This document shows positions 3,802 to 44,272 of a DNA stretch of 64,000 nucleotides, piece after piece (the stretch's first letter is position 1; every line of letters starts with the position of its first letter). A program made the translations under genes and the position numbers. The DNA comes from Patescibacteria group bacterium (GTDB taxonomy: Bacteria > Patescibacteriota > Patescibacteriia > UBA9934). The stretch covers positions 314,758 through 378,757 of the forward strand of contig JAGORL010000001.1 in NCBI GenBank assembly GCA_018062825.1, written 5' to 3'. Under the pieces are notes generated by a model. It was not told the origin of the DNA and ran no database searches. It saw nothing but the letters and a program-made list of their open reading frames with translations.

Positions 3802-4971
3802 CTACGGCAGCGGATCGCCGCGGTCGTCCACCCGGATCTCGAAGATGACGAACGGCGACGGGTCCGGCACAGGGGATCCGACGAGCACGTCATCGACAGC
3901 ATGGTTCACCACGTAGGCGCGCTTCTTGTCCGGGTGAAGCGCGATCGTGGACGGCTGCACGAAGGAGACGTTGACGTTCTCCGGCTGAGTGATGCGATCG
4001 ATCTCGTAGGGGTCGAAGTCGCACTCGTTGAGGCCCGAGATGACGCTCACGGAGTTGTCGCCCGCGAGCACCGCGTACAGGTCACCGTTCTGCGCGAACG
4101 CCAGCCCATCGGGCAGGTCATTCAGGCCGTACTCGTACACGATCTCCGGGGTCTCGCCGAGATCGTTCAGTGGCACGCGGTAGATCTTGCCGGTCGCTCC
4201 GGGAGCGCCGGGGAAGGGCACCCCGCCCGTGAACGCGAAGTAAAGGTACTCGCGCTCCGGATCGAGCTTGATGCCGTTCATGCCCAGGCGCCCGCCTCCG
4301 AAGAAGCCGAGCAGCGGGTCCACGATGACCGGCACGGGCTCACCACCACCCGGGGGAACCATGAAGATGATGCCCTGGATGCTGTCCGTCACGTAGAGCT
4401 CGCCCGCCGGGCCGACGACGATCCCGTTCGGGACGGACGGCGGCAGGCCGGGAATGGGCGGCACCTCGATGAGCTGCGGGAAGGGCGTCGACGTGTGCAG
4501 CGACTGGGTCCAGGTGGGCCCGAAGCACGTGTCGACGATCGAGAACTTCACCACACCGAGCTGGGTGCTGTTCACGTACAGGTTGCCATCCGCGTCGAGC
4601 GCGGACTCGCTGAAGGCGTGCTCGAACAGGATGTTCTCGCCGTCGGCCTCGAGCGTGTCGATGAGGTCACCGTCGTTGAGATCGTAGACCCGAACCCAGG
4701 AGGCCGGTAGGCCGGCGGTCGGCGAGGCGGCCGGACCGGTCACGTACAGGAGCTCGCGGTCGTAGTCGACGACCACGCCTTCGGGCCATTCGTAGCCCGC
4801 CGGCATGGTGGCGAAGATCTCCGCCGAGCCGACGTTGCCCTGACCGTTGTTGTGACCACCGCCATGGCCACCACCGTGACCATGACCGTTGTTGTGACCA
4901 CCGGGTGGCCCGCCGTGGGCGAGCGTGGTGGTCGGAATGATGAGTAGAAGCGTGAACAACAGCTGACGCAA
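3802..4971 (-). CDS. Secreted beta-propeller protein (SMP-30/gluconolactonase/LRE-like or NHL-like repeats) with an N-terminal His/Gly-rich tract.
   Basis: Signal peptide MRQLLFTLLLIIPTTTLA. Then HGGPPGGHNNGHGHGGGHGGGHNNG (a putative metal-binding tract). Repeated ...LYVTDS.../...GDLYAV... blade-like motifs. TTG start with AGAGAGG upstream. ~65% GC. Confidence 0.5.
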   Translation of the reverse strand: MRQLLFTLLLIIPTTTLAHGGPPGGHNNGHGHGGGHGGGHNNGQGNVGSAEIFATMPAGYEWPEGVVVDYDRELLYVTGPAASPTAGLPASWVRVYDLNDGDLIDTLEADGENILFEHAFSESALDADGNLYVNSTQLGVVKFSIVDTCFGPTWTQSLHTSTPFPQLIEVPPIPGLPPSVPNGIVVGPAGELYVTDSIQGIIFMVPPGGGEPVPVIVDPLLGFFGGGRLGMNGIKLDPEREYLYFAFTGGVPFPGAPGATGKIYRVPLNDLGETPEIVYEYGLNDLPDGLAFAQNGDLYAVLAGDNSVSVISGLNECDFDPYEIDRITQPENVNVSFVQPSTIALHPDKKRAYVVNHAVDDVLVGSPVPDPSPFVIFEIRVDDRGDPLP

Positions 4972-5062
4972 CTCGAACCTCTCTGAACTAGCATCTATTG
5001 ATGCGCCTCGTTATGAGGCGGCGAATAGTATAGTGTTCAAAAACAAGATAGCCAAACGAGTA

Positions 5063-5590
5063 TTACACACCGGAGCTACTTTCCTTTGAAAGAAGCTGAG
5101 ACTTAATCGCTGATCCCCAGCGATACTGTCCAATCGATCCATCAGCCGGCACAACGCGGTGGCACGGGATAAGAACGGCAATGCGATTAGCGCCAACTGC
5201 GGTACCAACTGCGCGGTATGCGTGCGGCCTGCCAATGTTCTGAGCGATTTGCGCATACGTCCTGCGCTCACCGTACGGAATATGCAGAAGCTCCAACCAA
5301 ACGCTTTTTTGAAAAGCGGTACCGGTAGTAAAAAGGGGAATGCTGCGTTGATCGCCTTTATTCTTCAGTGCATCAAAGGCCACGAGGTGAAGGCGGTGCT
5401 CGCTCGCCACGAGAGCGGACTCGGGAAATAATAAAGATAATTCTCGGGTATGGTCGATATCAGGAATCTGGAAGGCAAGAAAGACAATCGCTCGATCGCT
5501 TGAAGCAATAAAAACCTCACCCTGTGCGGATGAGTAGCTTGCGTAGTACACACGATCAATCACCTCGTGATCATTAAGAAAAGAAGACAT
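5063..5590 (-). CDS. ogt: Methylated-DNA-[protein]-cysteine S-methyltransferase (O6-alkylguanine-DNA alkyltransferase).
   Basis: Active-site motif IPCHRVV (PCHR). The C-terminal HTH-like DNA-binding region is conserved. Start at the ATG at 5588-5590 (MSSFL); the listed 5617 start is TTG. Confidence 0.8.
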   Translation of the reverse strand: MSSFLNDHEVIDRVYYASYSSAQGEVFIASSDRAIVFLAFQIPDIDHTRELSLLFPESALVASEHRLHLVAFDALKNKGDQRSIPLFTTGTAFQKSVWLELLHIPYGERRTYAQIAQNIGRPHAYRAVGTAVGANRIAVLIPCHRVVPADGSIGQYRWGSAIKSQLLSKESSSGV

Positions 5591-5643
5591 AGATAAATAT
5601 AATCTGAGTGTAGGCAAAAAGGCGGAAAGGGGGAAGGGTAGGG

Positions 5644-5672
5644 TTGCTTAATGTGTAAAAATGATGTAGACT
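5644..5672 (+). promoter_or_regulatory. Sigma70-like promoter: TTGCTT, 17-nt spacer, TAGACT.
   Basis: Sits ~10 nt upstream of the DUF1003 ATG, giving a near-leaderless transcript. Confidence 0.4.
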
Positions 5673-5681
5673 ATTCCCCCT

Positions 5682-6101
5682 ATGGGTAAGACACTTTCAA
5701 TCATCGAGAGCCTGACGCGCTCCATCGGTTCTGTTGGATCGATCATCGCGCATACGTTCTTCTTCTTTATTGCATTTCTCATTGGCGCACTTGGTGTGAT
5801 TGATTGGGATACCGTCCTTTTAGTGCTAACAACCGCCGTTTCACTGGAAGCGATTTATTTGGCGATCTTTATTCAGATCACCGTGAATCAAAACACTGAA
5901 AGTTTGCGTGAGGTGGAGGTTGACGTTGATGAGATTCAAAAAGATATTGATGCGATCGAGCAGGATGTTGATGAAATTCAGATAGATGAAAAGGAGGAAG
6001 AGGTGCGTGATGCGCGCCAGCAGGAGGCGATTGACGACATCGGTGAGCGCTTACAGCGCCTTGTTGAAGATGTTTCCAAGCTTTCAAAGCGCGTGCAATA
6101 A
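5682..6101 (+). CDS. DUF1003-family membrane protein (two TM helices plus an acidic coiled coil).
   Basis: Hydrophobic segment FFFFIAFLIGALGVIDWDTVLLVLTTAVSLEAIYLAIFI followed by a charged DVDEIQ... repeat region. Confidence 0.5.
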   Translation: MGKTLSIIESLTRSIGSVGSIIAHTFFFFIAFLIGALGVIDWDTVLLVLTTAVSLEAIYLAIFIQITVNQNTESLREVEVDVDEIQKDIDAIEQDVDEIQIDEKEEEVRDARQQEAIDDIGERLQRLVEDVSKLSKRVQ

Positions 6102-6145
6102 GTAGGGTATTAAGGCTAATATTAGCTAATAATAGCCAAAAATCA

Positions 6146-6174
6146 TTGACAGATGTTGGAATAAATGCTATAGT
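6146..6174 (+). promoter_or_regulatory. Consensus sigma70 promoter: TTGACA, 17-nt spacer, TATAGT.
   Basis: Perfect -35 hexamer at 6146-6151, a 17-nt spacer, then TATAGT at 6169-6174. No ORF follows before the terminator at 6281. Confidence 0.55.
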
Positions 6175-6180
6175 ACAGGT

Positions 6181-6306
6181 GTTGATACTATAGATACGGT
6201 AGTTCCCAATTTCTTCCAAGTTACGTGAAGACACAATTCGGCACTTAACAGTTATTGAAAGCATTGACACAAATAAAAAATCGGACCGCTTGTGTCCGAT
6301 TTTTTG
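6181..6306 (+). ncRNA. Candidate small RNA (~125 nt) lying between the consensus promoter and an intrinsic terminator.
   Basis: Bounded by the promoter at 6146-6174 and the hairpin TCGGAC-cgcttgt-GTCCGA plus T7 at 6281-6306. There is no ORF of 60 aa or more on the + strand. Confidence 0.35.
6281..6306. terminator. Bidirectional intrinsic terminator AAAAAA-TCGGAC-cgcttgt-GTCCGA-TTTTTTG.
   Basis: An A-tract and a T-tract flank a 6-bp stem. It also sits directly 3' of the minus-strand gene 6309-6677. Confidence 0.75.
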
Positions 6307-6308
6307 TT

Positions 6309-6677
6309 TTATTTCTGCTTTGCTTTGTGCTTAGCAATGTTTTGCCGAATGCAGTAACGAGTAATGCGCTTGATAAGGCCAATCGGCAGCGGCTTATCGA
6401 GCGGAAACTGGATACTCCCCTTAGCTGTCTTGTACTTGGTGAGCGAACTTTTGAAGGCTACGAGTGCTGCACTACCTGGATACAGACCGATATGACCTTT
6501 GTACCCGGCGTAGTGAATGAGGTTACCGTGAAGCTTGAAAGTTGGAATGCCGTAACTGATGACCTCGGTCGCCGAAGGCGCAAGTGTACGGATGGTGACG
6601 CGCATTTTTTTCAAGAGGCGCTGAACAAGAATAGGATGCGCTGCGATGTATGTTTCAACACTCGCCACTGAGCGCAT
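6309..6677 (-). CDS. DUF1801 (YdhG-like) domain protein.
   Basis: Family-typical N-terminus (VETYIAAHP...LLKKMR..I...AP.ATEVISYGIPTFKLHGNLIHYAGYKGHIGLYP). Confidence 0.6.
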   Translation of the reverse strand: MRSVASVETYIAAHPILVQRLLKKMRVTIRTLAPSATEVISYGIPTFKLHGNLIHYAGYKGHIGLYPGSAALVAFKSSLTKYKTAKGSIQFPLDKPLPIGLIKRITRYCIRQNIAKHKAKQK

Positions 6678-6795
6678 ATGACTATTTCTTCTTCTTATCG
6701 GTCTTCTTTGGTTTCTTAACGTTCTTGCGTGCGTTCATGCCTTTGGCCATACATTGAGATAAATAATATAGTTGAAGTATAGCATTATGAGTGAA

Positions 6796-7635
6796 CTAAG
6801 CGTGATGTGCAAGATCGGCTTCGAGTAAATCAAGAATCTTCCCGTCAACGCTTTCATCAAACTTGCGAGCAAAAAGATTGTGACTACTACGCAGATACGT
6901 TGCATCTTGCAAGGTAAACGTGCGTGGTCGAAGTTTGATCGTGCCGTCTGGTACCCAGTCGATTGCCCGTAGGTCATCATTCACAAGCTGTGATTGATAC
7001 GACGTATTCATGATGACCGTTTGAAAGAAGCTTTCATCGGCAATGAAAGTATGGCGATAGAAGCGCTTGAAGCGTGTAACCTCAGGACTCGTTGCAAGAA
7101 ACTCGCAAAAACTTCGCGTTAAAATCATCCACTGATTACCAATATACGGCGTTGCTCTACGTAAGAACTTGCGCGTAAACGGCAGCTGCACAATACGCTG
7201 AGCAAACTCCAGATAATAATTTTGAAAACGACCAACAGTACCTGGACGTACCTTCTGTTGATCGATAACTTTCATGAAATCAGTGCCAGCGTGTTTGGTG
7301 AGGAAGGTGCGAATCTGGCGTTGTGATTTAAGTGGAAAATCCTGACCGCTTAAGTTAATAAAGAACTGCCAGCGTGGACTCATGGCAAGAAGTGCGGCAA
7401 TGCCTCTAAGCTGTGCATCAACAAGACTGTAACCACCCCACAAAGCGTTTTTACTTTCAATAAGTTGAGCATTCGGAAACGATGCTAAAAACGCCCCGAT
7501 CTCAGTACGCAGTGACTGGTCGGCGCGTTTATCAGTATGCACCACATAGAAGTTATCTGGGTGGTAAATAGCCTTAAAAAGACGTTTGAACTGTTTAGGG
7601 TAGCGGTGTACTAGGAGGAAATAGGCAATCATCAA
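6796..7635 (-). CDS. Glycosyltransferase family 14 (core-2/I-branching beta-1,6-GlcNAc-transferase-like).
   Basis: Matches the Branch-domain signature: YHPDNFYVVHTDK...LSGQDFPLKS... Confidence 0.6.
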   Translation of the reverse strand: MMIAYFLLVHRYPKQFKRLFKAIYHPDNFYVVHTDKRADQSLRTEIGAFLASFPNAQLIESKNALWGGYSLVDAQLRGIAALLAMSPRWQFFINLSGQDFPLKSQRQIRTFLTKHAGTDFMKVIDQQKVRPGTVGRFQNYYLEFAQRIVQLPFTRKFLRRATPYIGNQWMILTRSFCEFLATSPEVTRFKRFYRHTFIADESFFQTVIMNTSYQSQLVNDDLRAIDWVPDGTIKLRPRTFTLQDATYLRSSHNLFARKFDESVDGKILDLLEADLAHHA

Positions 7636-18616: not shown

Positions 18617-20175
18617 ATGAAAGCCGTAATTCTTGCTCGGGTTTCAACTGAAGAGCAGAAGGATGCAGGAAACTCTCTTCCTGCACAGATTGAGCGTATT
18701 CAATCTTACTGCCAAAGAAAAGGATTCGCCGTAGCAGAGGTATTTAGCTTTGATGAAAGCGCATATAAAACTAAACGTGATGAGTTCGATAAGATTTTAG
18801 AGTTCCTAGAAAAGACCACAGAAAAGATTGCAGTTTGTTTCGATAAAGTTGATAGGCTCTCACGCAACGTTTTTGATAAACGTGTTTCCACGCTCTACGA
18901 AAAGGCAGTCAACGATCAGATTGAGCTTCACTTTGTCTCAGACGGACAGATCATCAATAATCAAATGTCGGCCGTAGAAAAGTTTCAGTTCGGCATGAGC
19001 TTGGGATTGGCTAAATACTATTCAGATGCTATCAGCGATAACGTAGTACGGGCATTTGAACAAAAAAGACGTGATGGTGAAATTACTGGTCGCTGTCGGA
19101 TCGGCTACATCAATGCCCTTGACCCAATGGGCAATAAAACTGTCTCCCCCGATCCTGACAGATCGCACTTGGTAATAAAGATTTTCGAGATGTACGGTAC
19201 AGGCAATCACTCAATGAAGACTATTCTTGAAGACCTTACCAAAGCTGGGTTGCGAAGTAGGGATGGTTTTAAGCTCTCGAAAAGCAGTATTGAGAACATC
19301 CTACGGGAACCTTTTTATCACGGGATCGCTCGATCCAAGAAATATAATCAAGACTATCCGCACAAGTACGAACGGTTGATCAGTAAAGAGCTTTTTGACC
19401 GTTGCCAAAAAATCAGACTAACCAGAAAGAAGGAGCCATATAAAGCTCTCTCTAAAGATTTCATTTTCAAAGGCCTACTTCGTTGCCAAAACTGCAATTG
19501 CACGATGACCCCTGAAATCAAAAAGGGACGCTTTATTTACTATTCCTGTACCAACTCCAAGGGACAATGCAAGCGGGTCTATGTGCCAGAGAATCAGCTC
19601 CTAAAGCCCGTATACGACGTTCTGAGCCGTTTGTCTGGTATCTCAGAAGGAATACAGAACCTTCTCGTTACAGAGCTTCGTAAGACCACAGAAGCCGAGG
19701 TAGCCTTTCATCAGGCTCAGCTTGGACGTATTCGAAATGAGCAGGATCAGTTTACTAAGCGAAAGGACGCTTTGCTCGACTACCTTCTCGACCAGAGTAT
19801 TACTAAGGAATTACTAAGGATCAGTATGACAAGAAACTGCAAGAGATCATGGACAGGCTTCAGACCCTCAGCCTTGAATTAGAAGAACATTCACGGGCTG
19901 ACTATGATTATCAAACTACAGTAGCTACGGTACTTTCCCTTGCTCGTCGGGCAAAGGATATTTTCGATAGTTCTGAAAACCACGAAAAGAGAGCCTTTAT
20001 AAACTATCTCATTCAGAACCCAACCGTAGCAGGTAAGGAACTTGTCTTTAACCTCAGAAAGCCTTTTGATTTAGTGCTAAATCTTGCAGATGAACAAAAA
20101 AAGACGGTCAACGTTTCCGCTGATCGTCCTTCTTGGCTCGGGGGGTGGGGATCGAACCCACGGCCAATTGGTTAA
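18617..20175 (+). pseudogene. Large serine recombinase (resolvase/invertase N-domain plus recombinase and zinc-ribbon domains), frameshifted by an 11-bp tandem duplication at 19799-19820. The 3' end overlaps tRNA-Asn.
   Basis: N-terminus AVILARVSTEEQ (catalytic Ser). Central recombinase domain and a Cys-rich motif (CQNCNCTM...C). The reading frame switches to the +2 frame (ORF 19849-20175) exactly at the duplicated ATTACTAAGGA. Deleting one copy restores ...LDQSITKDQYDKKLQEIMDRLQTL... Confidence 0.75.
19799..19820 (+). repeat. Exact 11-bp tandem duplication (ATTACTAAGGA x2) that frameshifts the serine recombinase.
   Basis: Direct reading of the sequence: tATTACTAAGGAATTACTAAGGAtcag. Confidence 0.9.
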
Positions 20176-20208
20176 CAGCCAACTGCTCTGCCGCTGAGCT
20201 ACCCCCGA
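20134..20208 (-). tRNA. tRNA-Asn (anticodon GUU), 75 nt, with CCA encoded.
   Basis: Minus-strand read: UCGGGGG-UA-GCUC-AGCGGCA-GAGC-A-GUUGG-CUGUUAA-CCAAU-UGGCC-GUGGG-UUCGAUC-CCCAC-CCCCCGA-G-CCA. All stems pair. U1-A72 and G73 are as in bacterial tRNA-Asn. Confidence 0.9.
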
Positions 20209-20320: not shown

Positions 20321-20349
20321 TTGACAAAATCTCAAAAATAGGGTATATT
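20321..20349 (+). promoter_or_regulatory. Consensus sigma70 promoter: TTGACA, 17-nt spacer, TATATT.
   Basis: Perfect -35 hexamer at 20321-20326 and -10 at 20344-20349. An RBS, GAGAGG, precedes the ATG at 20390. Confidence 0.6.
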
Positions 20350-20389: not shown

Positions 20390-20767
20390 ATGAGCAGCAG
20401 CCCTGCACTCCTGCCAGTCGCAAGCGACAAGAGCGGCGACGAACAGTCGGGAGTCACGACTCTCGACTTCCTCCTGAGCATCGACGGCACGAGCGCCGGC
20501 GTTCGTAGGCGTTACGAGAAGGAAGGATTCGGAAGCATCGTGACCACCTGGACGGGCTCCCTCGAAGAGTTCAGTCGGGCGTTCCTCACCGCTGTCAACG
20601 TGGACACCAAGGAGGTGCACATCATCCTCCAGCGCTGCACGTCACAGTACAAGCCGGGAACGATCGAGGGGCGCAGGATGGTCGGCGAAGCCACGTTCAT
20701 CATGTCCAACCGCATGTTCAACGAGGTCTACGACCGCGTCTGCCCGCCTCCCGAGGTCGCACACTGA
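20390..20767 (+). CDS. Hypothetical protein (125 aa) in a GC-rich islet, located across tRNA-Asn from the AT-rich island.
   Basis: Strong promoter, RBS and terminator. ~60% GC. No family recognised. Confidence 0.55.
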   Translation: MSSSPALLPVASDKSGDEQSGVTTLDFLLSIDGTSAGVRRRYEKEGFGSIVTTWTGSLEEFSRAFLTAVNVDTKEVHIILQRCTSQYKPGTIEGRRMVGEATFIMSNRMFNEVYDRVCPPPEVAH

Positions 20768-33936: not shown

Positions 33937-34466
33937 TGGAGTTCTGGGTCATCGCTGCCGCGATCGCTACGATGGGCCTCGTGCTTGTCGTGTCGATCAC
34001 GATCGCTGCCGCCGCACTCATGTTCCTCTGGCGGCGGTTCACGGAAGGTGTCATGAGGGGTTTTGGCCTGGCGTACATGCCAATGCGGCAAGATTCCCCA
34101 CAGGAGCGAGCCTCGGCTCGGCTCGGTGAGGTGATGATTCCGCTGCGGCAAGAGTCTGCTGCGCCACGCCCAAGGACGGTGTCCCGTCTGGCTGGTGATC
34201 ACAAGCCTGCGCGCCCCCGGCTTGTGCCACAGGCGGTGGACGAAGACCGCACGAAGACGGTCGCCTTCTCACGCTACAACGCCGAAGACGACCAGGACAC
34301 CGAGAGCGACGAAGGTGGCCCGCGCAGCTGGAAGGCTGACGCGAACGACGGCCGTTCCAACATCTCGCTTGAAGGGGACATCACGCCCAGGCCCGCAGCC
34401 GGGCGCAAGGTGCTCCCGTTCACGCCCCCGACGAACTCCTTCCACGACCTGTTCCGGAGGAAGTGA
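33937..34466 (+). CDS. Hypothetical membrane-anchored protein (176 aa) in a GC-rich islet.
   Basis: GGAGG RBS 5 nt before the ATG. N-terminal TM helix followed by a low-complexity tail. Terminator at 34494-34530. Confidence 0.45.
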
Positions 34467-34493
34467 TTGCATTGCCCGCGCCCGGGAGATGCC

Positions 34494-34530
34494 AGGCCCC
34501 TCGTACTCAAGCGAGGGGTTTATTGTTTCT
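34494..34530 (+). terminator. Intrinsic terminator GCCCCTCG-tactcaag-CGAGGGG followed by TTTATTGTTTCT.
   Basis: Read directly from the sequence. Confidence 0.65.
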
Positions 34531-34585
34531 ATCGTGCACTTTACTCTTTTAACGTTACTCTTTAATCTACCCGCGGAGGTGCCCC

Positions 34586-35353
34586 ATGTCTGTTTGGCAT
34601 GCACGGTCAAAGTGCCCCGTGTGCGCAGGCACGGGGGAGAACGCCAGTTCGCCACTCAAGATCTGCGACGTCTGCTTGAGTCTTGGGTACATGTACAAGC
34701 CAAGCGCGGCCTTTCGAGAGCTCGGGCAAGCACTATGCGAGCGCCTGCGGTTTCTCGAGAAGACTACGCCGCCCTTGCCGATCGCGATTGTGATCGACGA
34801 AGTGACCGAGATCGATCGCCTCATTCGCGGCCTCGACGCCGAGACCGATCCGAACAGCACGATTATCGACTCACTCGCGAACGATATCCGCAACGGTCAG
34901 TTACGGCGCTATCTGCAGGAGCTCAAGAAGAAGCGCGATGAGGCGATCATCGACCTCCAGCTCCAGGTGGCGCTCCTGCCGCGTGAGCTCGGACAAGCGG
35001 TGATCCAAGCAGCACGCGGTCAGTACGCGGACGCCGAGCTCTTGTTTGCGAAGGCGCTACGCAAGTACGAGGAGGAAGCGGTGGTGCACTACCACTACGG
35101 CATGTACCTCATGTGCTACAAGCGCAAGTACAGGGAAGCACTCTGGCAACTGGAGAGCGCGGTACGCATCAATACACAAAGTCGAGCTGCTATTTACCTC
35201 GCCGCCGCCGACTGCGCGAGTGAAGTAGGTAGCCACAGCAAGGCTGAGATGTATTACGTGATGTGCACGATCGCTGATGACTTCGACGAACTCGACGAAG
35301 ACACGCAGCGTCGTGTCGAGTTCGTCGCTCGCGGCGACGGCATCGTCAACTAG
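34586..35353 (+). CDS. Hypothetical protein with an N-terminal zinc-ribbon (CPVC...CDVC) and a C-terminal TPR-like helical region, in a GC-rich islet.
   Basis: GGAGGTG RBS. CxxC-(18 aa)-CxxC arrangement. ~62% GC. Confidence 0.5.
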   Translation: MSVWHARSKCPVCAGTGENASSPLKICDVCLSLGYMYKPSAAFRELGQALCERLRFLEKTTPPLPIAIVIDEVTEIDRLIRGLDAETDPNSTIIDSLANDIRNGQLRRYLQELKKKRDEAIIDLQLQVALLPRELGQAVIQAARGQYADAELLFAKALRKYEEEAVVHYHYGMYLMCYKRKYREALWQLESAVRINTQSRAAIYLAAADCASEVGSHSKAEMYYVMCTIADDFDELDEDTQRRVEFVARGDGIVN

Positions 35354-41346: not shown

Positions 41347-42158
41347 AGCCCAGCGGCTTTGCGCATAATGCGATCAAGTAACCACGTTGGAACAAGCTTA
41401 GTGACAACAGGAATCCATGAGGCAGACGCCGGCGCCAGTAAACGGGCCGGCGTTTTTGCGTCTTCAACCGCTCGTACAATTGCCTCTACCACAGATGTAG
41501 TCGGGACTTCTTTGTTTGGCAGATCGCGTTCAAACTTCTTCAGTCGATCAAAATCAGCAGCGAAGCGCGACGTTGGCAGTAACCAGCGCCACTTGTTGGC
41601 GTACATGCGTTCATTAAAACCGGTGGCAATATAGCCAGGCTCAATCAGATGCACGCGAACGTTGTGCGGCCTCATCTCCATCCTGAGCGCATCGTGCATG
41701 GCTTCGAGAGCAAATTTGGTCATGTGATACGGGCCAAGATGCGGTAGGACGATTCTGCCAGCAACTGATGACAACGTAATAACTGCGCCGGCATTGTTTT
41801 GTAGTTGCCTAATAAACGCCTGCGTTAATCTCAGAGTTGAAAAAACGTTCACCTCAAACCCTGCTCGCACTATCTCAAGCGGCACTTCGCTCATTGGTCC
41901 GGATTCACCAACTGCGGCGTTATTGATAAGCACATCAAATGAATGATCAGAGAAAATGCGAGCCTCATCGCTTTCTTGTGTGATATCAAAAGCAGCAACC
42001 TGCAGTTTGATGTTTTCAGCTTCAGCAAGTAATCGCAACGCTTCCGCTTGTTCGGGTATATGCGCGGTAGCGACAACATGGTGACCGCGCTTGGCAAGGG
42101 CAAAGGCGGCATCTTTTCCAATACCACGTGCCGCACCAGTTATGAGAATAGAAGACAT
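41343..42158 (-). CDS. Short-chain dehydrogenase/reductase (SDR) family oxidoreductase.
   Basis: TGAARGIG cofactor motif and YxxxK (PYHMTK). Start chosen at MSSILITGA. Confidence 0.75.
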   Translation of the reverse strand: MSSILITGAARGIGKDAAFALAKRGHHVVATAHIPEQAEALRLLAEAENIKLQVAAFDITQESDEARIFSDHSFDVLINNAAVGESGPMSEVPLEIVRAGFEVNVFSTLRLTQAFIRQLQNNAGAVITLSSVAGRIVLPHLGPYHMTKFALEAMHDALRMEMRPHNVRVHLIEPGYIATGFNERMYANKWRWLLPTSRFAADFDRLKKFERDLPNKEVPTTSVVEAIVRAVEDAKTPARLLAPASASWIPVVTKLVPTWLLDRIMRKAAGL

Positions 42159-42175
42159 ATGGCCGCATTCTATCG

Positions 42176-42212
42176 TGAATAAAAAGAAACGGCACCCGTT
42201 ATGCACGGGTGC
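42176..42212 (-). terminator. Intrinsic terminator CGGCACCCG-tgcataa-CGGGTGCCG followed by TTTCTTTTTATT (minus-strand read).
   Basis: 9-bp stem. The loop contains the TAA of a candidate 57-aa ORF at 42199-42372. Confidence 0.55.
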
Positions 42213-42368
42213 CGGTGAGGCCGAGCTTGCGCAGTCGCAGGCGAGCTCGGATGGTAGCGGCGTCGATCATCATCTGAAATCCGAGGACCGTTTCCGGGCC
42301 AAGGGTGCAGACGGCAACGCCAAGGACTGCGGTGCGGCTAACGAGTGAAACCGTGCGCACGAAGTGGA

Positions 42369-43214
42369 TCATCGAACGAACCTCGCAAGTTCACGGGTGA
42401 TGCCACCCAAATACGGAGTCTGTGCGGTACAGCACAGAAAGTTGCGGCGCTGGAACACAGCCTTGCGCAGTTCATGCGGAGCCTGCTGCGCCATGATCAC
42501 GATGTCGGCCACGGCGAACGTTGGCAGATCGCTCTGCGCATCGCCGGCCGCGATCACGCTCACCTCTTCACGTCGATCTCCGCAGCGCTCAATGTAGCGC
42601 AGCAGAGCCTTGCCCTTGTCCGCGCCCTTCGGCACGAAGTCCACGCTGTACCGAGTGTTGAACTGGTCGACGAGGCCGACGATCTGCGGCAGGCGATCGT
42701 ACAAGAGGCGACGCACGTTCTTGTCGAACGTATCGGCGACGATGTGTGATGGACGAGCGAAGGAGAGCGTGAACTGCTTGCGGCGCGCCTGTGCGCCGTA
42801 GCGCGTGGCCACTTCGTGGTTCATGTACGTTCGCACCCCGTTCAGTGCCTCCACGGTGTGTGGGCGAACGTCAGGGCTCAGCGCGAGATCGCTGAACTGC
42901 GCGCCGCTGCGAACGAGCAGGCCGCAGCCGCTCTCGCTCACGATCGCATCCACCTGATCGCCACAGATCACTTCCGCGACGATCTTGCAGAACTCGTGAT
43001 CGCGTCCGCTGTTCAGCACAGCGTGCCCACCCGCAGTGCGCGCCTGGCGCAGGAGTGCGATGAACTGATCCACGAGTGCCGGGTTGCGCTCGGCAAACTG
43101 CACCACGTCATCTTCCGTGTACGCCCGATCATCATCGGTGCGAGACGGAATGAGTGTGCTATCGATGTCGAACGAGAAGTAGTGCCGACGCTGATCGGCG
43201 CGAGCAGTAGTCAT
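42369..43214 (-). CDS. HAD-superfamily hydrolase, subfamily IIB-like (Cof/SPP-type phosphatase), in a GC-rich islet.
   Basis: Motif I FDIDSTL and motif IV AAGDAQSDLPTF. ATG at 43212-43214 with GGAG upstream. ~62% GC. Confidence 0.6.
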   Translation of the reverse strand: MTTARADQRRHYFSFDIDSTLIPSRTDDDRAYTEDDVVQFAERNPALVDQFIALLRQARTAGGHAVLNSGRDHEFCKIVAEVICGDQVDAIVSESGCGLLVRSGAQFSDLALSPDVRPHTVEALNGVRTYMNHEVATRYGAQARRKQFTLSFARPSHIVADTFDKNVRRLLYDRLPQIVGLVDQFNTRYSVDFVPKGADKGKALLRYIERCGDRREEVSVIAAGDAQSDLPTFAVADIVIMAQQAPHELRKAVFQRRNFLCCTAQTPYLGGITRELARFVR

Positions 43215-43372
43215 GACAAGGTCTCCGGGTTGAGGGGAAAGAGCGACTTGGTAGCGTAGCAGAACCGCGCACCTCAGACAAGTACGTTTACCTAGAACGA
43301 AAAAGCACCCGAACGCAGGGGGCGGGGGTGCTTGAGAGCCGACGGATTCGGCTACGGCCGTGAGCGGGGAGC

Positions 43373-43690
43373 TTACGGCAGGACGATCTCGGGGGCGGAG
43401 ACCTTCAGGAGGATGTAGGGAGCGGCGCCGACAAGAGTGGTGACGATGATCCCCATGACATAGCGCCAAGAGGTGTCTCGATGCAGCTTCTCGCGACGCC
43501 ATGGGTCACCCCACCCCGCATGCTTCTGAGCCTTGAGGTAGTACGTGACGGCGTGACGCATGAGGTACGCATCGATCAGGGCGGTGGTCGCGATGGCGAT
43601 CAAGGTGATGACGCTGAGAGGATCGGTTGGCAAGACACGCTCCGTAACTAAGGGTGAAGGAACAGAGGAGTAGAGTAGCAGAAAAATCAA
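43373..43690 (-). CDS. Hypothetical small membrane protein (105 aa).
   Basis: ORF with two predicted TM helices in a GC-rich region. Weak support. Confidence 0.3.
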   Translation of the reverse strand: MIFLLLYSSVPSPLVTERVLPTDPLSVITLIAIATTALIDAYLMRHAVTYYLKAQKHAGWGDPWRREKLHRDTSWRYVMGIIVTTLVGAAPYILLKVSAPEIVLP

Positions 43691-43702
43691 ATAATTGCAA
43701 GA

Positions 43703-44272
43703 TTGCCACTAAATGATCGGCAGTCTATGATGAGCCATATGTCTTTTGAAAGTCTTGCGCTAGCGGAAGCGCTCGTAAAGAGCCGCATTGTTGGCACGCG
43801 TATCGGCTCAGAAAAGCCGCAGTGGCAGCATTCATGCGATGTCCGCGATAAGCTTGCCATGTACAAATACCCTCAAGAGGTGGTGCTTGCTGGCCTACTT
43901 CATGATGCCATTGAAGATGCTGGTGCTACCGCTTTAGAACTCCAAGAAATCGGGTGCTCCGATCGAACGCTTGAGTTGATCGATCTTGCTACCCACGACA
44001 GTGCAATAGAAGACAAGGATCACCGCTGGGCAAAAATGATGGTGCGTTTGGCTGATGCCAAGGATGCCGACGCTTGGGCGATCAAGCTCGCGGATCTCTT
44101 GAGTAATATGACCGACTGTGGAACTATGCCGACCGATCGCGCGCTCCTCATGATTGAGGTGAAGGCTGGGCTGATGCTCGCACTAGCCGCCCCCTTGATG
44201 GCTGATACGCCGCTTTATAAAGAACTCAAACGTCTCCGTGACCACGCCCTCTATGCCGCACCTCGACCTTAA
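43703..44272 (+). CDS. HD-domain metal-dependent phosphohydrolase (small HD protein).
   Basis: H...HD motif (LAGLLHDAIED) with downstream conserved D. An alternative start is at MSFESL. Confidence 0.6.
   Translation: MPLNDRQSMMSHMSFESLALAEALVKSRIVGTRIGSEKPQWQHSCDVRDKLAMYKYPQEVVLAGLLHDAIEDAGATALELQEIGCSDRTLELIDLATHDSAIEDKDHRWAKMMVRLADAKDADAWAIKLADLLSNMTDCGTMPTDRALLMIEVKAGLMLALAAPLMADTPLYKELKRLRDHALYAAPRP

Follow-up and report, generated by a model that had tools for sequence, protein, structure and literature searches.

The locus lies in a metagenome-assembled genome of Patescibacteria (CPR). A 64-kb stretch of this genome was analysed as a whole and is called the window here. The window possesses, in this order, ogt on the minus strand, a DUF1003 gene on the plus strand, the unit studied here on the plus strand and a DUF1801 gene on the minus strand (Table 1). 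The unit is composed of a candidate promoter, a predicted transcript and a terminator, and it is held by the intergenic gap between the DUF1003 gene and the convergent DUF1801 gene. This gap was given as about 200 bp in the original prediction and measures 207 nt (6102-6308). The Ogt protein of the window is a DNA-repair methyltransferase which contains the Pfam domain DNA_binding_1 only and no regulatory domain. The unit was compared with its two diverged homologues, L070 and L097, and positions which are the same in all three sequences were counted as invariant.

Table 1. Features of the locus, with positions in the window and the number of positions invariant in the window, L070 and L097.
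Feature	Position	Strand	Invariant positions	Remarks
DUF1003-like gene	5682-6101	+		Pfam match weak (19 bits); NCBI protein name DUF1003; membrane and coiled-coil protein
Left flank			3/22	adjoins the A-rich block
A-rich block, TTAGCTAATAATAGCCAAAAATCA	6122-6145	+	20/24	5' of the -35 hexamer
-35 hexamer, TTGACA	6146-6151	+	6/6	
Promoter spacer			4/14	length of 17 nt kept
Extended -10, TGc + TATAGT	6166-6174 (-10 itself 6169-6174)	+		TG invariant in the three lineages
Discriminator			2/6	6 nt
Predicted transcription start	G6181	+		7 nt past the -10; from promoter geometry
Predicted transcript, about 125 nt	6181-6306	+		92% identical to L070 (115/125)
RNA body, 90 nt, 35% G+C	6181-6270	+	79/90	weakly structured
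Internal copy of the -35 region, AAAGCATTGACA	6258-6269	+		11/12 direct repeat of 6140-6151; contains TTGACA 6263-6268
Bidirectional intrinsic terminator	6271-6309	both	35/39	
Terminator A-tract	6275-6280			
Terminator G+C core	6281-6286 with 6294-6299			
Terminator loop	6287-6293			
Terminator T-tract	6300-6309			
Right flank			1/6	
DUF1801 gene, convergent	6309-6677	-		Pfam E = 5e-13

The promoter sequence TTGACA-17 nt-TATAGT was found at 6146-6174, exactly where it had been predicted. Of the 12 consensus positions it matches 11, and it possesses in addition a TG one base 5' of the -10 hexamer, which places it in the extended -10 promoter class. Promoter matches of at least 11/12 occur twice in the 64-kb window against 0.99 expected, while those which also carry the TG occur once against 0.03 expected. 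The second site of at least 11/12, TTGACA-17-TATATT at 20321-20349 on the plus strand, adjoins tRNA-Asn (20134-20208, minus strand). It is followed by the Shine-Dalgarno sequence GAGAGG and an ATG at 20390, which starts an ordinary gene (ORF 20390-20767). As this site heads such a gene, consensus sigma-70-type promoters look meaningful in this organism. Across the three lineages the -10 hexamer reads TATAGT, TAAACT and TAGGAT, with T1, A2 and T6 kept. The spacer retains its length while few of its positions are invariant, and the discriminator is similarly variable; invariance sets in at G6181 in all three sequences. A promoter lost between conserved flanking genes had been named as the result which would speak against an sRNA. 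The comparison gave the opposite outcome, since the three lineages all retain the -35 and the TG as well as the key -10 positions. For the A-rich block 5' of the -35, a role as UP-element or activator site of the candidate sRNA promoter is likely, and the block is retained in the window despite the fact that ogt no longer adjoins it. The second TTGACA listed in the original prediction is present at 6263-6268. It was rejected as a promoter, since no -10 is found at 16-18 nt and the hexamer reads TTAACA in L097.

The bidirectional character of the terminator, which had also been predicted, was borne out by the hairpin AAAAAATCGGAC-CGCTTGT-GTCCGATTTTTT at 6275-6305, called on both strands. The energy of this hairpin is -17.4 kcal/mol, compared to -4.0 +/- 2.0 kcal/mol in shuffles (z = -6.7). 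In L097 its stem carries one compensatory pair, from U-A to A-U, which is the sole compensatory pair in the unit. Both in the window, where the convergent gene is DUF1801, and in L097, the terminator directly adjoins the stop codon of that gene; in the window the contact is with the T-tract. Read on the other strand, the same hairpin would terminate the convergent DUF1801 gene.

Identical copies of the unit were found in the Logan assemblies L001 and L002. Apart from these, two diverged homologues were recovered. L070 shows 88.7% identity over 194 nt (nhmmer E = 9e-39), and its DUF1003 protein shares 80% identity with the one of the window. L097, a JGI contig of 1.7 kb, shows 82.5% identity over 189 nt (nhmmer E = 4e-49). 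The family is represented by three distinct members, in the window, L070 and L097, and has a narrow distribution. A covariance model made from the three members scored 155-159 bits on those three and gave no further hit in related loci totalling about 0.5 Mb. Genome contigs searched with the DUF1003 protein gave 67 loci, none of which possesses the element according to blastn, nhmmer and the covariance model, and the element is absent near other DUF1003 relatives at 64-73% identity. Searches with ogt homologues and contig look-ups gave no further close relatives. No homologue was found in the scanned viral contigs, where 14 matches of a 17-mer were not homologous, and blastn against phage and plasmid collections gave no match. 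A metagenome scan with the 18-mer CTTCCAAGTTACGTGAAG gave 20 loci, of which one is a true homologue (L097) and 19 are without the element; most of these 19 match the coding motif ISSKLREGWEP or ISSKLREGYEP. This 18-mer, which belongs to the apical region of the RNA, exactly matches the coding stretch RWIRISTLGEADPRHISSKLREGWEPV of a protein on many metagenome contigs (L088, L090, L091, L094, L098-L101, L103 and others). The identity was judged to be a chance match to a widespread gene and not homology.

The unit is far more conserved than the genes around it. Between the window and L070, nucleotide identity is 71% in DUF1003, 61% in DUF1801 and 57% in ogt, all well below that of the predicted transcript (Table 1). 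Between the window and L097, the predicted transcript is about 83% identical, and the unit is the sole nucleotide-level match in the whole 64-kb window. The ogt of L097, which adjoins the unit, shows 46% amino-acid identity to that of the window. Across the lineages, Ogt proteins are 46-58% identical while 88% of the body positions are invariant. The conserved block starts at G6181 and ends just past the T-tract, and these edges are the limits of the predicted transcript. Comparison of the three sequences indicates strong purifying selection which acts on the unit as a whole.

In all three loci, the unit is situated in the neighbourhood of ogt, and the order of the genes around it differs. The L070 locus shows the order ogt (minus strand), unit (plus strand), DUF1003 (plus strand) and DUF1801 (minus strand). 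L097 possesses ogt (minus strand) and the unit (plus strand), followed by a convergent gene of 255 aa. In L070 and L097, the start codon of ogt lies about 20-50 nt from the -35 of the candidate sRNA in a back-to-back arrangement. In the window, DUF1003 separates the unit from ogt, of whose own upstream DNA only some 90 nt are left. DUF1003 has a promoter-like sequence of its own in the window and in L070. From the alignments, the unit and DUF1003, together with this promoter-like sequence, are seen to have swapped order between the window and L070. Similarly, the comparison indicates that the unit is independent of the identity of the downstream gene. No terminator was called between DUF1003 and the promoter of the unit in the window, so that DUF1003 transcripts there probably include the sequence of the unit at their 3' end as well. 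A 24-nt palindrome at 6114-6137 with the perfect arms GGCTAATATTAG/CTAATAATAGCC, which is also a 10-nt tandem repeat of GCTAATA(T/A)TA in 2.2 copies, is located past the DUF1003 stop codon and ahead of the conserved block, and has the look of a duplication that arose locally. Only its right half is matched in L070 and L097, and the palindrome is therefore taken to mark the junction of the rearrangement between DUF1003 and the unit.

These gene orders bear on the possibility that the unit is a cis-acting leader of DUF1003, that is, a riboswitch or an attenuator. The order in L070, where promoter, 125 nt and terminator are followed by DUF1003 beginning 63 nt past the terminator, is what such a leader would show. 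In the window and L097, however, the unit faces a convergent gene and has nothing downstream to control. Moreover, DUF1003 has its own promoter-like sequence in both genomes which carry it beside the unit, no antiterminator pairing is evident, and no cis-regulatory match was found in Rfam. A leader is extremely improbable on these grounds, and as the gene 3' of the unit is convergent in two of the three loci and co-directional in L070 alone, this reading was excluded.

Coding potential was analysed in six frames of the three sequences, and no conserved protein-coding frame was found in the unit. Just one frame, which lies on the antisense strand, is open throughout the three sequences; eight of its nine variable codons are nonsynonymous. 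The other frames contain stops or have no start codon. The claim that no plus-strand ORF lies between promoter and terminator was found to hold for that stretch, while a TTG ORF on the plus strand (6255-6671) starts inside the unit. This ORF is the antisense of the Pfam-supported DUF1801 gene. Reading UGA as sense (genetic code 25) was rejected, as the neighbours give full-length Pfam matches under code 11 and the frame has no start codon. It is conceivable that the signals enclose nothing functional, a chance promoter standing in front of a shared terminator, or that they enclose the gene of a tiny protein. About one 11/12 promoter match would arise in 64 kb by chance alone, the convergent DUF1801 certainly uses the hairpin, and the antisense ORF open in all three sequences might be taken for a small gene. 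Against this, conservation far exceeds that of the neighbouring genes, the promoter has a conservation footprint, and the changes in the sole open frame alter the amino acid in nearly every variable codon. We regard both versions together as hardly credible.

The search of the whole window with Rfam 15 at the gathering threshold gave tRNA-Asn as the sole match. When the region 5900-6500 was searched at E <= 10, the best match reached 21 bits against a cutoff of 55 bits, and all matches were driven by the terminator. Other kinds of element were also considered and rejected. A MITE or another repeat was discarded because the unit is present in a single copy in the 64-kb window, has no terminal inverted repeats at its conserved edges and is always situated near ogt. 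The template repeat of a DGR, a retron and a guide RNA were discarded because there is no second copy in the window and the neighbours at 3802-7635 include no reverse transcriptase or nuclease. The unit combines a conserved predicted promoter, an intrinsic terminator and the absence of a conserved coding frame, which are the generic features of an sRNA gene. By these features, and by its nearly unaltered retention in three distantly related Patescibacteria whose neighbouring genes have diverged and changed order, it is very probably a small-RNA gene of no described family. The original prediction of a candidate sRNA of about 125 nt gains comparative support from the identity of the transcript (92% and about 83%, against 57-71% in the flanking genes), from the compensatory pair in the terminator and from the lack of a coding frame.

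The body of the RNA showed little sign of a stable fold. Its folding z values against shuffled sequences are +0.08, +0.88 and +1.59 for the plus strand of the three sequences, none of them better than shuffled, and the single-sequence folds of the three disagree with one another. The RNAalifold consensus has the form of a long, imperfect single hairpin with a pairing of 5' GUUGAU to AUUGAC. This pairing accounts for the second TTGACA. Among the 11 variable body columns, nine are at unpaired positions of this long hairpin. Covariation in the consensus hairpin was not significant, since a score at least as high was reached by 162 of 500 shuffles, and none was found in the body (n = 3 sequences). 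Conservation and covariation in relatives had been proposed together as a check of the RNA; the conservation was clearly found and significant covariation was not. As the body is without covariation, its folds are discordant and its z values are no better than those of shuffles, no body structure is claimed and the body is treated as weakly structured. The most accessible conserved stretch of the body is CCAAGUUACGU at nt 36-46, with the C/U-rich runs UUCCC and CUUCC on either side. Further accessible invariant stretches are A(C/A)ACA at nt 50-55 and the linker 5' of the terminator.

Words of the promoter are repeated inside the RNA. The 12-mer AAA(T/G)CATTGACA is found at the -35 and again near the 3' end of the body, and the two copies agree at 11 of 12 positions in the window (6140-6151 and 6258-6269). 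In L070 the copies are identical at 12 of 12 positions (approximate positions 2770-2781 and 2887-2898), while the copy in L097 is degraded to AAAGGATTAACA. The -10 word is similarly echoed, as ATGCTATAG at 6165-6173 recurs as ATACTATAG at 6185-6193, and (A/T)GATAC occurs twice within the conserved block.

Short direct repeats such as AAAGCATTGACA and (A/T)GATAC, each present twice, are also compatible with a block which acts at the DNA level, either as a cluster of protein sites or as a regulatory module historically tied to ogt, the RNA being incidental. The position of the unit directly upstream of ogt and divergent from it in L070 and L097 points in the same direction, as does a body sequence which is kept without an RNA-structure signal. 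Yet the unit is intact in the window, where DUF1003 parts it from ogt. The limits of conservation are the predicted start and the terminator end, which is the signature of a transcript rather than of an operator array, and the terminator stem carries its compensatory pair. An intact unit away from ogt with edges at the transcript edges makes a purely DNA-level role very unlikely.

The gene at 6146-6309 is most plausibly, though by no means surely, a self-contained gene of a noncoding RNA of about 125 nt, the product of which would be a trans-acting regulator that most likely base-pairs with mRNAs. A strong housekeeping-type promoter, composed of the A-rich block, the consensus -35, the 17-nt spacer and the TG-extended -10, would start the RNA at about G6181, and the hairpin with its T-tract would stop transcription at about 6303-6309. 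The RNA would act in trans and may pair with mRNAs through the weakly structured, invariant 5' body, which is predicted to be most accessible at CCAAGUUACGU. Purine-rich ribosome-binding sites are possible partners of UUCCC and CUUCC, and the 3' end of the RNA would be shielded by the terminator hairpin. Base pairing is favoured over a rigid scaffold because the body is A/U-rich and poorly folded and possesses accessible invariant stretches. An exact-complement search found no complementarity of at least 12 nt elsewhere in the 64-kb window. The duplex energies with the translation-initiation regions of ogt, DUF1003, DUF1801 and a glycosyltransferase gave z values of -1.95 to +1.06 against shuffled sRNA, so that none of these regions exceeded chance.

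Base-pairing sRNAs at such divergence usually keep just the seed and the terminator. That nearly every position of this RNA is invariant from end to end is uncommon in this class and favours a protein partner or another dense constraint. The main rival reading accepts the same transcription unit and takes the RNA as a protein-binding or housekeeping-type one, that is, a component of a ribonucleoprotein or a protein sponge. A body invariance of 88% at an Ogt identity of 46-58% is the pattern of an RNA with contacts from one end to the other. The promoter, with its consensus -35, its TG-extended -10 and the A-tract upstream, has a high-output design, and the prevalence of unpaired positions among the variable columns (9/11) agrees with the consensus long hairpin. 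The lack of covariation in the body, its z values of +0.08 to +1.59 and the discordant single-sequence folds stand against this reading. Likewise, no 6S, SRP, Y or other Rfam match was found at E <= 10, and the very narrow distribution would be odd for a housekeeping role. On balance, we consider the protein-binding reading unlikely but worth keeping in view. A bolder proposal is that an abundant clade-specific RNA is constrained over its whole length, either as a subunit of an undescribed ribonucleoprotein or through contact with RNA polymerase by its copies of the -35 and -10 words. This seems quite unlikely. If true, it would explain why every part of the unit is frozen amid the scrambled genome of reduced-genome, probably episymbiotic bacteria.

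The unit was compared with known systems. The unit resembles the Hfq-independent C-rich sRNAs of Firmicutes (RsaE/RoxS type) in its length (about 100-125 nt), consensus promoter, terminator hairpin and lack of an ORF. It also resembles them in the conserved C/U-rich runs UUCCC and CUUCC and in conservation beyond that of the neighbouring genes. Unlike these, however, it shows no sequence or covariance-model similarity to them, its C-rich runs are not in well-defined loops, its whole RNA is invariant rather than the seed alone, and no target was found in the scans of the window and its neighbours. Similar to OxyS/oxyR, GcvB/gcvA and SgrS/sgrR, the units of L070 and L097 are divergent from a fixed neighbour, ogt. 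This neighbour is a methyltransferase and not a transcription factor, and in the window the linkage is broken by DUF1003. The unit of the window follows DUF1003 and would share its mRNA 3' end in the manner of 3'-UTR sRNAs with their own promoter (MicL, DapZ type), but its promoter is situated past the stop codon and not inside the coding sequence. As the units of L070 and L097 are in no 3' UTR, the 3'-UTR arrangement of the window is secondary. With 6S RNA, the unit shares a long imperfect consensus hairpin with paired ends, a strong promoter and -35- and -10-like words of its own. It differs in that the body is 90 nt long against about 150-200 nt, with no large central bubble and no stable fold, in the absence of an RF00013 match at E <= 10, and in ending with a separate terminator hairpin. 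That the architecture is the one of an ordinary stand-alone sRNA gene, and that the unit represents a new sRNA family of narrow distribution, is well supported.

Full-text literature searches found no relevant work on sRNAs in Patescibacteria (CPR), and to our knowledge almost nothing is known of RNA-based regulation in this group. The host lineage has tiny genomes and few transcription factors. With its promoter, terminator, conservation and lack of an ORF, the unit offers a clean case for metatranscriptomic validation and target prediction, within the scope of the three known carrier lineages.

Some further observations were made at this locus and in related contigs. A very basic ORF of 22 codons, MAKGMNARKNVKKPKKTDKKKK, is present on the minus strand at 6682-6750 and ends 4 nt 5' of the DUF1801 start codon; its counterpart was not seen at the equivalent place of L070. 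The closest relative of ogt outside the clade is that of L107, with 47% identity. Directly 5' of this ogt, where the clade has the unit, L107 carries a tRNA-like sequence (positions 1-143, judged by eye). On several of the CPR contigs compared, ogt and DUF1003 are found in clusters of small genes with poorly characterised domains (L070 4673-5886, L108 667-3498 and L111 6900-7259). The domains of these clusters are DUF1801, which is often multicopy, OmdA, DUF1428, DUF1697, DUF1653 and AHSA1, and the clusters look like a recurrent accessory neighbourhood in which the gene order is shuffled. An NHL/SGL-like beta-propeller gene lies at 3802-4971 on the minus strand. The 1-kb bin 4001-5000 has 65.6% G+C, compared to 45-47% in the adjoining bins and about 48% in the genome. 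Other 1-kb bins of high G+C are found at 34001-35000 and 42001-44000, and the high-G+C bins, including that of the NHL/SGL-like gene, suggest recent foreign acquisition.
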